Part shown: in pieces, positions 1 through 26,968 of the stretch | Numbering within the stretch: the first letter of the stretch is position 1 | How the letters are laid out: every line of letters starts with the position of its first letter | From: Collinsella sp. | Lineage (GTDB): Bacteria > Actinomycetota > Coriobacteriia > Coriobacteriales > Coriobacteriaceae | Direction: 5' to 3' | Assembly: GCA_046995905.1 (NCBI GenBank) | Contig: JBKXET010000001.1 | Span: 479,589-543,588, forward strand | Length of the DNA: 64,000 nt | Translations under genes and position numbers: made by a program | The notes under the pieces: model-generated | Database searches by the model: none | Told to the model about the DNA's origin: nothing | Seen by the model: only the letters and a program-made list of their open reading frames with translations

Positions 1-207
1 GTCGCCGCCGTCGAGAAGGCCCACGAGGAGCGCTACAACAAACTCGTCGAGCGCATCGAGTCGGGCGAGGTGTTTGAGCGCGAGGGCGTGAAGGTGTGGA
101 AGTGCCTGAACTGCGGGCACCTGCACGTTGGTGCCGAGGCGCCTGAGGTGTGCCCGGTGTGTAACCACCCGAAGGCGTACTTTGAGGAGCAGGTGGTGAA
201 CTACTAG
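1..207 (+). CDS. rbr: rubrerythrin, C-terminal fragment (5' end outside window)
   Basis: Open from base 1 to TAG 205-207. Translation ends ...EKAHEERYNKLV...WKCLNCGHLHVGAEAPEVCPVCNHPKAYFEEQVVNY, a ferritin-like helix followed by a rubredoxin-type CxxC-x12-CxxC domain. Confidence 0.85.
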   Translation, partial: VAAVEKAHEERYNKLVERIESGEVFEREGVKVWKCLNCGHLHVGAEAPEVCPVCNHPKAYFEEQVVNY

Positions 208-228: not shown

Positions 229-394
229 GGGCCGGGAGGGCCGGACTACCTTCCCTCCTCGCTCACGGCTTCGCAGGGTCGCGTTGAGGGAAGGTAGTCC
301 GGCCCTCCCGGCCCGCTTTGGGTCGTCGCGTGCTCGCTACAGAAAAGCTGATAAAAAAGTTTGTGTGCCGCCCCTTATGGGGCGGCACGTTTTT
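229..394 (+). repeat. structured intergenic element, copy 1 (29-bp perfect stem, conserved loop, conserved tail ending in an intrinsic terminator)
   Basis: Arms 229-257 and 286-314 are perfect reverse complements, with loop 258-285. The tail ends in hairpin GTGCCGCCCC-TTAT-GGGGCGGCAC plus a T-run (365-394). A paralog lies at 1131-1292. Confidence 0.8.
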
Positions 395-16650: not shown

Positions 16651-16890
16651 TTTTGGCCGCTTTGTAGCGTCAATCCACCGCGAGAAGTACGGATTCACGC
16701 GTCTTTTGATGCGGATGGGCGTAATTTGGCTTCGATTTGGGTCCGTTTGGCTTCGATTCGAACTAAGTGAGTAGACTTTTTAGCGCAGGTCGAGCACAAG
16801 GCGTATCTGCCTTAGTAAAACCGCAGGTCACAGAGGTGACAGTTTTTGGTGTGCTCGACAGGTCACGAAAAGTCTACTCACTTAGATTTG
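16651..16890 (+). repeat. intergenic repeat A, intact copy, containing a ~123-nt imperfect palindrome (16763-16885)
   Basis: Outer arms CTAAGTGAGTAGACTTTT (16763-16780) and AAAAGTCTACTCACTTAG (16868-16885); inner arms GTCGAGCAC and GTGCTCGAC. A paralog at 24961-25134 plus 26901-26968 is split by the IS. Confidence 0.85.
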
Positions 16891-17035
16891 CGGTACTGGA
16901 TATTCTGAGCAGGAACAGTTGAGCTTGGACGGCGCGTATTGCCAGGCGATGTTGGCATTTGTGCCATGCTGGCTTGAGATTTAATAAAACCGCAGGTAAA
17001 ACGTTCATTAGGTACAGTTTGCCTCGTTTGGTGCG

Positions 17036-24978: not shown

Positions 24979-25134
24979 TGTCAATCCGCCGCGAGAAGCA
25001 CGGGTTCAAGCGTTTTTTGCGGTGGACTGGCTCCATTTGGTTTCGATTTTGATCCGTTTGGCTTCGATTCGGACTAAGTGAGTAGACTTTTTGGCGCAGG
25101 CCGAGCACAATGCATATCTTCCTTTGTAAAACCG
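24961..25134 (+). repeat. intergenic repeat A, second copy, left part (interrupted by the IS)
   Basis: Aligns with 16651-16823 and ends ...TTTGTAAAACCG directly before the IS. Confidence 0.85.
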
Positions 25135-25150
25135 ACGCTCCTATAAGTTG

Positions 25151-26388
25151 TCAATAGGCAGTTTGCGGGAGCGCTCCCTTCAATTCGCACAGGAGCTCGT
25201 AATACCTCCTCTCCAGTTTCGTCGACCGCCGTCTCCCATGTTCCAGGTGACCGAGTGAGGCCGCGGACATGCCGAGCCCCGCGGCGGCCTGCTTCTGGGT
25301 CACCCGCATCGCCTTGCGCATCTTCGCGAGCTCGGGGCCTTCCGGCGCGGCGCCGTCGGGATTCGGGTCCATGAGCACGCGGTACACCTCCCGCGCTATG
25401 TAGCGCTTCAGGCAGCGGACCGCCTCCCTCCGGGACTTCCCCTCGGAGGTTCGCCTCGCCACGTACCTCCTCGTCCTCTCGTCGTATGCCATGCGCTTGA
25501 TCGCGATCTCGTAGAGCGCCCAGTTCGCCTGCCGGTTGCCGCCGCGGTTGAGCCTGTGCCGCTCCGTCTTCCCGCTCGACGCGGGGATCGGGGAGACGCC
25601 GCACAGCATCGAGAACGCCGCCTCGCCCTTCAGCCTGCCGGGGTTGTCGCCGGCGGCCACGACCAGGGCGGCGGCGGTCGTCGTGCCGCAGCCCTCGATG
25701 CCGAGCAGCGCGGGCGCGTTCGCCTCCAGCAGCGCGCGGATGCGCTCGTCGAGGGACTCGACCTGGCTGCGGGCCTCCTTCCAGACCGCCGCGACGGACC
25801 GCAGCGAGGCCAGCACGCTCTCCTCGAGCGCGTCGCCCGCCTTCCTCCGCGCGCGAGCAGCGGCATGAGGTCCTTCGGCCGCTCGCGGCCCCTGAACCGC
25901 TCCCTCAGGGCGCCCGGGGCCGTCGTGAGCATCGACTTCGCGCAGGCCACGCAGGACGTGGACGTCGCGACGGCCAGCCTGCGCGCGACGTAGAGCTGGC
26001 GCACCGCCTCGACCCAGCCGTCCTGCGACTTCGGCACGGAGCAGCCCCTCCCGGACGCCGCCTTGCGCGCCGCGCGCTCGGCGTCCAGCGGGTCGCTCTT
26101 CCCCTCGCCGGGCCTCGCCTTGTCCCTCTTGGGCCTGAGCACCTCGACGACGTTGTACCCGAGCTCCACGAGCCTCCTCGTCAGCCCGGCCCCGTACGAT
26201 GCCGTGCCCTCGACGCCGACGACCATGCAGCTCCCCGGGTCGCCTATCGCCTCCGCCAGCCTGTCGTAGCCCTCGGGGTCGGCCCCGAAGCTCCCGCTCC
26301 AGATCTTCCTCCCGAGGCCGTCGAGCAGGCACAGGACATGCACGTCCTTGTGCGTGTCGACGCCCGCGATGACCGTTTCGCCTTCCAT
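25151..26388 (-). pseudogene. IS110-family transposase, interrupted by a frameshift near 25845-25862
   Basis: The N-terminal DEDD domain (VIAGVDTHKDVHVLCLLD...VGVEGTASYG) is in one frame. The Transposase_20 part (LLGIEGCGTTTAAALVVAAGD...SSGKTERHRLNRGGNRQAN) is in the -1 frame. The switch falls in a GCGCGCG run. Confidence 0.8.
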
Positions 26389-26488
26389 TTTCGCTCCCCT
26401 CGGTCTGCCGCCTGCTCCGCGCCCGGGTCTCCCAGACATTGCACTGACGGGAGCGCTACAATCAAGTTGCCTTATCCGATTGTCCGCG

Positions 26489-26900
26489 CTCATGCTCCTA
26501 TTAGGTCATGGCAGGACTCCGGGTCGCGGAAGCCGGGGCGAGACAGGTCGGATTTGAGGACGGCCGAAGAGGCGTCAGCAGGTCAGTGGGTCATCGTCCC
26601 GGCGTTCAGCATCAGGGTAGCGCTGCGACGCGGAAATCGCGCGCTGTTGACGCGCCCCCGCAGTGCCCGCTTCCCCCGAGGACAATTATCAGTGCTCATG
26701 CTCCTATTAGGTCATGGCAGGACTCCGGGTCGCGGAAGCCGGGGCGAGACAGGTCGGATTTGAGGACGGCCGAAGAGGCGTCAGCAGGTCAGTGGGTCAT
26801 CGTCCCGGCGTTCAGCATCAGGGTAGCGCTGCGACGCGGAAATCGCGCGCTGTTGACGCGCCCCCGCAGTGCCCGCTTCCCCCAAGGACAATTATCAGTG
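26489..26900 (-). repeat. tandem duplication (2 x 206 bp) of the outer 5' non-coding end of the IS
   Basis: Units 26489-26694 and 26695-26900 are identical except at one position (26678 G vs 26884 A). Each ends with the IS terminus ...GGACAATTATCAGTG. Confidence 0.95.
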
Positions 26901-26968
26901 CAGGTCACAGGGGTGGCGGTTTTGGGTGTGCTCTGCAGGTCGCGTAAAGTCTACTCACTTGTAATTTG
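26901..26968 (+). repeat. intergenic repeat A, second copy, right part
   Basis: CAGGTCACAGGGGTGGCGGTTTTGGGTGTGCTCTGCAGGTCGCGTAAAGTCTACTCACTT aligns with 16824-16885. Confidence 0.8.

Follow-up and report, generated by a model that had tools for sequence, protein, structure and literature searches.

The 64-kb stretch of Collinsella DNA considered here (the window, whose coordinates are used throughout) contains a copy of an insertion sequence (IS) of the IS110 family, read on the minus strand, in which the first 206 bp of the long non-coding left end are present twice in tandem. Usual copies of this element are ~1560 bp long, with element position 1 being the C of CACTG. Its recombinase gene (Table 1), once the reading frame is corrected, encodes a protein with an N-terminal DEDD (RuvC-like) domain and a C-terminal Tnp domain (PF01548, E=1.7e-18; PF02371, E=1.3e-17). 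In single-unit copies 304–306 nt of non-coding sequence separate the terminus from the ATG, and ~16 nt follow the stop codon; these properties agree with the proposal, made in an earlier note on this DNA, that an IS110-family element with a long non-coding end upstream of its recombinase gene is present. It should be noted that the gene is frameshifted by the loss of one G from a GGG run at 25847-25848; the intact homologue P0001 has 412 aa. Because the closest copy (L008, 99.7% identical) keeps GGG where the window shows GG, the frameshift is either private to the window copy or a homopolymer sequencing error.

A single array is detected by Tandem Repeats Finder (26488-26901; period 206, 2.0 copies, 99% matches, no indels), and direct comparison of the units 26489-26694 and 26695-26900 shows a single difference, G at 26678 and A at 26884. 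By these values (2.0 x 206 bp, 99%) the array fits the definition of a tandem non-coding repeat expansion at IS110 loci (bioRxiv 10.64898/2026.08.14.744561), namely at least two neighboring same-strand copies, at least 50 bp long and at least 95% identical, within the locus. The 15-mer GGACAATTATCAGTG closes both units (26680-26694 and 26886-26900) and has no third site in the window, where 0.03 would be expected by chance. Since the bases beside it differ, the boundary of the duplication can slide by no more than 2 nt (G, C), and the outer boundary coincides with the terminus of the element to within this 2-nt ambiguity. The 2 x 206-bp duplication with one base difference, and the common ending of the units at the element terminus, had both been described in the earlier note and are confirmed; so are the positions of three embedded strings, namely GCAGGTCA (26578-26585 and 26784-26791), which is identical to G26900 plus the flank 26901-26907, TCAGTG (26583-26588), and GCTCCTAT (26494-26501 and 26700-26707), which recurs at 25137-25144. 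The base that distinguishes the units is element position 17, one of 10 sites that are often polymorphic between copies, and it is the outer unit, not the inner, that has the usual haplotype of the lineage. Such a distribution could reflect either a contribution from a different copy or mutation or conversion at a later time.

The duplication is a rare variant. Recombinase homologues with 94–100% identity are very common in Collinsella, one 90%-identity cluster having 7846 member sequences, and 84 other loci were gathered from Collinsella genomes and gut metagenomes. The tandem junction string is absent from all 84 of these loci, exactly one full 206-bp unit is found in 75 of them, and the distance from terminus to ATG is that of a single unit (304–306 bp) in each of the 80 copies in which it could be measured. 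A scan of Joint Genome Institute (JGI) metagenomes for the junction string gave 0 matches; a looser junction pattern gave 45, all of them unrelated chance matches. At the same chromosomal site as in the window, L038 (Collinsella sp. i05-0019-G5) and L056 have a single-unit element between flanks that are 97% and 92% identical to those of the window, respectively. Both elements differ from the window element at ~40 positions, and they may therefore be independent insertions, or products of gene conversion, and not simple ancestors. The duplication is present in 1 of ~85 copies and, as none of the others has it, is a derived, rare variant, which supports the view in the earlier note that the structure is unusual and answers its question whether other copies have one or two units. 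Neither a solo unit at the target nor an element without the unit is present among the collected loci. A head-to-tail junction pattern based on a first model of the element boundaries also had no match in the collected loci, but this pattern could not match the junction of a true circle or of full-length tandem copies, GGAGCGT-C-ACTG. Each of L029 and L042 has a pair of full copies in the same orientation, within 2.5–3.1 kb of each other, a local clustering of insertions without a tandem junction.

The multi-copy nature of the element raises the question of an assembly artefact, in which a tandem repeat was assembled wrongly, either from reads across the junction of a 206-bp partial circle or through mis-threading of the repeat graph. 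Short-read assemblies are known from this material to collapse copies to ~1.57-kb contigs, and the 1-nt homopolymer deletion in the recombinase gene is typical of long-read error, so that errors in the assembly are possible. However, the element lies inside a contiguous 64-kb window, its two units differ at one base, and the junction string is found in no normal copy, so that real reads must carry it. An artefact of this kind appears quite unlikely.

The limits of the element are defined by two independent empty sites and by flank divergence. The latter places the left-end terminus at 26900, and ACCTG and GGTTTT are common to 68 distinct left and 60 distinct right flanks, respectively, indicating site-specific insertion. 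In one empty site, AAAACCGCAGGTCA is read at the insertion point in ten contigs, obtained by homologue search, that share the HAD-YitT gene pair but are free of the IS; the other, on the minus strand of the window at 16817-16828, is the unoccupied counterpart of the insertion in L083. Both have the target as ACCTG-C-GGTTTT, without target duplication, and the element must therefore end ...ATAGGAGCGT, with a single C in common with the target, which corresponds to G25134 or G26900 on the plus strand. Thus only one base, not a dinucleotide, can be shown to be common to donor and target; GTC is invariant in 60/60 right flanks. The first boundary model, with a 2-nt GC core, a right end at 25137, and the target ACCT-GC-GTCGGTTTT, was rejected on the basis of the two empty sites, and its empty target has no match in the window or in any collected locus. 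Of the element limits suggested in the earlier note, the left terminus stands but the other end lies 2 nt further out, at 25135.

The target motif ACCTGCGGTTTT occurs at 2 sites in the window, where 0.21 would be expected, and also in the flanks of eight IS loci. The 119-bp palindrome that the element splits, of which an intact empty copy is present elsewhere in the window (Table 1), represents a REP-like host repeat family in Collinsella and is the natural landing pad of the element. A second exact empty motif ACCTGCGGTTTT (16986-16997, minus strand; context AACGTTTTACCTGCGGTTTTATTAAA) is not part of the 119-bp repeat. Elements of the P0092 and P0051 subfamilies (L097-L102 and L106-L109) are always downstream of a Transposase_mut (IS256-family) fragment with the left flank CTTACACCAAC, and seem to target the end of another insertion sequence.

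The interpretation of the duplication depends on what the left end encodes. The single-sequence minimum-free-energy fold of this region is uninformative (z = -0.66), and comparative folding was therefore needed; it included the window subfamily and five distant subfamilies with 54–68% protein identity. The left ends of all six subfamilies begin with CACTGATAAT and can be aligned from element position ~85 on. The RNAalifold consensus has two successive stem-loops, each with a large internal loop, and contains 47 pairs, 23 of them with compensatory changes; 88% of cells are paired, as compared with 35–42% when the partners are slid by 1–3 columns, and none of 500 shuffles matched the observed values. 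The bridge RNA of IS621 is arranged as a 5' stem-loop followed by a target-binding loop and then a donor-binding loop (PMC11208160). Covariation among the six subfamilies accordingly agrees with the suggestion in the earlier note that this is the bridge-RNA-encoding end, and the left end is predicted to encode a bridge-RNA-like structure. Rfam 15, which may not include a bridge-RNA family, gave no relevant match to the region (gathering threshold; E<=10) and, in the whole window, no bridge-RNA family but only a tRNA elsewhere and sub-threshold noise. One such match, to the archaeal C/D-box sRNA sR10, covers 26573-26616 and 26779-26822 on the minus strand (17.5 bits versus a gathering threshold of 45; E=0.22). 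This sR10-like stretch takes in the target-binding loop on its 5' side. The motifs on either side of the left target guide are GAUGAC and CUGA; those framing the left donor guide are CAUGAC and AUGA. A link between IS110 bridge RNAs and C/D-box guide RNAs has been proposed (bioRxiv 10.1101/2024.06.21.599552).

All four guides can be assigned on the consensus fold (Table 1). At 8/8 positions in the window, the left target guide is identical to the left flank together with the common C, and the right target guide is complementary to GT-C-GGTTTT at 8/9 positions. The first-loop segments change together with the target across subfamilies, as expected of target guides: the left and right segments are TGACCTGC and AAATCCGAC in the window element, ATCCTGAGC and CTGCGAA in L091, CCCTTACACCAAC and GAAAGAC in L106, and AAATGTC and AGAATGAG in L110, in each case matching the flanks of the element itself. 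In the second loop, TCAGTG(CA) is the reverse complement of (TG)CACTGA in the left junction TG-C-ACTGA, and the right donor guide with its two adjoining bases covaries with the junction in other subfamilies (AACACTGA, GTCACTGAT). Covariation is seen also in the inner stem of this loop, where GAGC/GCUC is replaced by GGGC/GCCC. Handshake guides have been described in IS621 (PMC11208158); here, the CA beside the right donor guide is complementary to TG, the last two bases of the left target half, and the AC beside the right target guide is complementary to GT, the last two bases of the right end. Both handshake-type relations covary across subfamilies. The earlier note had regarded the embedded strings as guide-like and proposed to check whether they fall in loops or in stems. 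GCAGGTCA (reverse complement TGACCTGC) corresponds to the left target guide and GCTCCTAT (reverse complement ATAGGAGC) to the left donor guide on the 5' side of the second predicted loop, and both are in loops of the consensus fold. The overlapping TCAGTG, by contrast, has no support as a guide and is not conserved in the closest subfamily, L085.

A TTGACA hexamer in the right end and a GATAAT hexamer in the left end are present in every subfamily in which both ends were read. When the ends are joined as the empty sites dictate, they are spaced as TTGACA-18 nt-GATAAT, whereas the earlier register gave a 15-nt spacer; the arrangement fits a promoter that would be rebuilt across the circle junction.

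Table 1. Coordinates of the element, its duplicated left end, the predicted bridge RNA gene and the host repeat (window positions; coordinates given as element positions are so marked)
Feature	Coordinates	Strand	Remarks
IS110-family element with duplicated left end	25135..26900	-	1766 bp; limits from flank divergence and two independent empty sites
Recombinase gene	25151..26388	-	ATG at 26388, stop 25151-25153; DEDD_Tnp_IS110, Transposase_20 and C-terminal HTH_3/HTH_31 (Pfam scan)
TTGACA, -35-like hexamer in right end	25149..25154	-	Overlaps stop codon
GATAAT, -10-like hexamer of outer unit	26891..26896	-	Inner copy 26685-26690; conserved as CACTGATAAT in all six subfamilies
Outer 206-bp unit	26695..26900	-	True left-end terminus, -10 box, 5' stem-loop, complete target-binding loop, 5' third of donor-binding loop
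Inner 206-bp unit	26489..26694	-	Runs on into 26389-26488, like normal single-unit copies
Tandem junction	26694..26695	-	In gene orientation ...AGGAGCAUGAG|CACTGATAAT..., in short GGAGCATGAG|CACTGATAAT; crossover within G-C
Sole complete bridge RNA gene (approximate)	26420..26678	-	Predicted transcription start (element position ~17) to 3' end of donor-binding-loop outer stem (~275)
Target-binding loop, inner copy	26528..26607	-	Outer copy 26734-26813
Left target guide CUGACCUGC	26578-26586 (outer 26784-26792); element 109-117	-	Predicted; 5' side of first loop; equals left flank plus crossover base
Right target guide AAAUCCGAC (AAAUCCG plus handshake AC)	26547-26555 (outer 26753-26761); element 140-148	-	Predicted; 3' side of first loop
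Donor-binding loop, complete once only	26420..26523	-	Inner stem GAGCGC 26486-26491 (element 204-209) / GCGCUC 26451-26456 (element 239-244)
Left donor guide AAUAGGAGC	26494-26502 (outer second copy 26700-26708); element 193-201	-	Predicted; 5' side of second loop; ATAGGAGC equals right-end sequence
Right donor guide UCAGUGCA (UCAGUG plus handshake CA)	26440-26447; element 248-255	-	Predicted; 3' side of second loop; reverse complement of left junction TGCACTGA
Host 119-bp palindromic intergenic repeat, split by element	25076..26960		Arms AAGTGAGTAGACTTT at 25076-25090, complement at 26946-26960; target ACCTG-C-GGTTTT central
Intact empty copy of 119-bp palindromic repeat	16765-16883		Target at 16817-16828

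When the duplication is placed on this structure, the last base of the unit is element position 206, so that the inner stem of the donor-binding loop is interrupted after 3 nt of its 5' strand; the crossover, in G206-C207, is 5–6 nt 3' to the left donor guide. Two parts lie beyond the repeat and are present in single copy only, namely the right donor guide and the 3' half of the donor-binding loop (26420-26488). The outer unit retains the terminus and everything from the -10 box through the 5' stem-loop and the complete target-binding loop to the left donor guide; it stops short within the donor-binding loop and so lacks the right donor guide, the inner stem-loop and the closing strand of that loop. 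Each unit would need both loops and all four guides to constitute a duplicated guide-RNA gene, as the earlier note had claimed, and this is not the case. Because the right donor guide and the 3' half of the loop are single-copy, the array consists of one complete and one truncated RNA gene. One boundary of the unit is the authentic right-donor terminus, and there is no left-donor match at the other, so that the donor match is one-sided.

There is nothing to favor the idea, also raised in the earlier note, that the duplication changes RNA dosage or begins the diversification of guides. An adaptive duplication of a guide-RNA module, by which the supply of target-binding-loop RNA would increase or a new guide could develop, could make use of the intact target-binding loop and the separate -10 box of the outer unit. 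However, the guides are the same in both units, the right donor guide is missing from the unit, there is no -35-like hexamer usably spaced from the inner -10 (the best, ATGACC, is 19 nt from GATAAT), only 1 of ~85 copies has the duplication, and its recombinase gene is frameshifted. Judged from these hexamers, the tandem junction does not rebuild a good promoter. Adaptation is thus a very unlikely explanation. Both copies of the left terminus are intact, and either could therefore be used with the right end; no function is evident. We consider it most likely that the duplication is neutral, a by-product carried by a copy that is decaying, and it is probably inconsequential for the host genome.

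The origin of the duplication has to account for the position of its boundaries, and in this respect a second case is informative. The sole other intra-element tandem duplication in 113 loci is a perfect 44-bp repeat in L026 (C. aerofaciens 1001099B_141217_A1; L026:2151-2241), which is independent of that in the window. It begins at the same left-end terminus, again with G-C at the crossover, and its inner breakpoint is in the 5' stem-loop of the RNA gene, the junction being GCGCGG|CACTGATAA. Replication slippage or unequal exchange at a 2-nt microhomology, independent of the recombinase and abutting the end of the element by chance, would be consistent with crossovers that are marked by nothing other than G-C and with an internal site that has no guide-matching sequence at the crossover. 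What this explanation does not provide is a reason for the boundary to coincide with the terminus to the nucleotide in the window and for the duplication in L026 to begin there also; for random breakpoints in ~1560 bp, two such coincidences have a probability of ~1e-5 by a rough estimate. Slippage or unequal exchange is for this reason regarded as unlikely. Because two terminus-anchored duplications would hardly arise from random events, an event that depends on the recombinase is favored, anchored on the right-donor half-site and with an internal partner that provides little beyond G-C.

An alternative is that a second copy of the element inserted into the resident one at the internal G-C and that homologous recombination between the long, identical right-hand parts then deleted one recombinase gene. 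Such a nested insertion yields exactly the observed junction, and the presence of the common lineage haplotype at polymorphic position 17 in the outer but not the inner unit is in its favor. However, the internal site is unlike the target ACCTG-C-GGTTTT, two steps are required, and the nested intermediate is seen in 0/84 loci, which makes this pathway rather improbable.

The explanation that we consider somewhat the more probable is that the duplication is a terminus-anchored by-product of the recombinase, arising by 'half-match' or partial recombination in a normal element, and that it is likely neutral in a copy now decaying. Recent studies provide a context for such an event: in IS621, 'half-match' recombination involving the donor only is enough for excision (bioRxiv 10.64898/2026.08.31.748434), whereas a survey of IS110 loci describes tandem non-coding repeat units beside transposases (n=468), as well as partial circles in which element termini are reused ~300-fold more often than by chance (bioRxiv 10.64898/2026.08.14.744561). 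The starting point would be a normal ~1560-bp element in its usual target ACCTG-C-GGTTTT, at the center of the palindromic intergenic repeat. During or after insertion, the first 206 bp would be duplicated in tandem when the genuine left-end terminus (the right-donor half-site, C-ACTGATAAT) was joined to an internal G-C within the bridge-RNA gene of the element itself. The recombinase, bound through the right donor guide to the terminus only, would make or initiate the event, and this could proceed by strand exchange with a sister copy, by integration of a 206-bp partial circle back into the left junction, or by repair of a break at the cleaved terminus. For the G-C at the end of the incoming strand, a G-C in the right donor guide and handshake positions could serve as the pairing partner, and the product would be a complete bridge-RNA gene with a truncated copy upstream.

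Several observations weigh against this proposal. The anchoring at the terminus is based on two events only, recombinase-independent repair also leaves microhomologies of 1–3 nt, and the evidence consists entirely of assembled sequence. Beyond the G-C, the internal site is unlike the true right end or the target, matching the corrected left-donor sequence at 2/7 positions, no better than chance; under the old register the crossover matched the guide at 4/7 and ranked 12th of 207 GC sites. The crossover also missed, by 5–6 nt, the DNA encoding the left donor guide, a stretch that mimics the right end perfectly. Finally, the recombinase is frameshifted, so that the enzyme must have acted earlier or have come from another copy.

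The earlier note had suggested a by-product of recombinase action on an internal pseudo-end. A by-product of the recombinase is indeed the explanation favored here, but the crossover is 5–6 nt beyond GCTCCTATTA. Crossover at this pseudo-end itself was rejected, given that offset and the lack of similarity to the true end at the crossover. An extension of the same reasoning, which we view as doubtful, is that the bridge-RNA gene is a preferred internal partner in terminus-anchored half-match reactions, since the DNA of its donor-binding loop copies the right end (ATAGGAGC, preceded by a TGAC motif); partial circles and duplications of the left end would then be systematic by-products of self-targeting. 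In that event, stand-alone target-binding-loop modules would be shed, and these could alter the balance between target and donor loops or give rise to new guides.

The recombinase itself has an unusual C terminus. Enzymes of the Coriobacteriia clade (P0001, P0031, and P0091, as well as the window copy at 25151-25330 on the minus strand) have an extra XRE-type helix-turn-helix at residues ~352–407, the coding sequence of which extends into the right end and the -35-like hexamer; to our knowledge, IS621-type recombinases have not been described with a C-terminal helix-turn-helix domain. It might regulate the junction promoter. Many database copies (P0007-P0011, P0021-P0029, and P0032; L001 and L002) have frameshifts at varied points just before or within the C-terminal part, which split off the helix-turn-helix domain (325 aa + 73 aa in L001 and L002), the frame then reading out into the flank. 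These frameshifts could represent recurrent decay or a regulated process, or they could be sequencing errors, the gene being rich in GC.

The locus provides a natural example of a terminus-anchored IS110 rearrangement without a full guide match, a process described so far mostly in bulk in 2026 preprints. Its breakpoints can be placed on an RNA structure supported by covariation, where the donor-binding loop is cut and a truncated guide gene is left, and this bears on the off-target and partial reactions of bridge recombinases in genome editing. A side product is the annotation of an abundant bridge-RNA element of the human-gut genus Collinsella. It covers the four guides and putative handshake bases, ~60–68 different sites of natural insertion, and the target motif in its empty state together with the host repeat in which it is found.

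Among known systems, the IS1111 subgroup with its seekRNA is part of the same transposase family and also has RNA-guided site choice. It differs in having the RNA downstream of the transposase, whereas the RNA of the Collinsella element is upstream and the downstream end is ~16 nt. The closer relationship is with IS621 and the IS110 subgroup (PMC11208160, PMC11208158), which have the same DEDD plus Tnp recombinase, a long left and very short right end, and -35 and -10 hexamers that come together only in the circle (a prediction in the present case). Also alike, on the predicted structure, are the order of 5' stem-loop, target-binding stem-loop and donor-binding stem-loop, the identity of left guides with left half-sites and the complementarity of right guides to right half-sites, the two bases beside each right guide that complement the non-cognate partner, and the use of a palindromic intergenic repeat as target. 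However, IS621 has a CT dinucleotide core, as opposed to the one demonstrably common base (C) of the Collinsella element, in which, moreover, the left donor guide matches the right end only up to 2 nt before the common base. The extra XRE-type helix-turn-helix and the Coriobacteriia host are further differences.

With respect to the rearrangement, the tandem-repeat loci of the IS110 family (bioRxiv 10.64898/2026.08.14.744561) likewise have a same-strand non-coding repeat beside the recombinase gene, with one boundary at an authentic terminus and no full donor match at the other. In those loci the boundaries mostly keep left-donor matches, whereas the window reuses the right-donor terminus; its left-donor-like 8-mer is 5–6 nt from the crossover, and its breakpoints are mapped inside the donor-binding loop. 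The half-match reactions of IS621 (bioRxiv 10.64898/2026.08.31.748434) are similar in that a partial match with the bridge RNA would explain a crossover between the terminus and a non-matching internal site, but they were observed in vitro, as excision and as off-target insertion, not as duplication, and we infer the connection. The kind of event represented by this locus is thus already described in the recent literature; the locus adds a clean example from nature, resolved to the nucleotide, in which the cut can be placed on the RNA gene.

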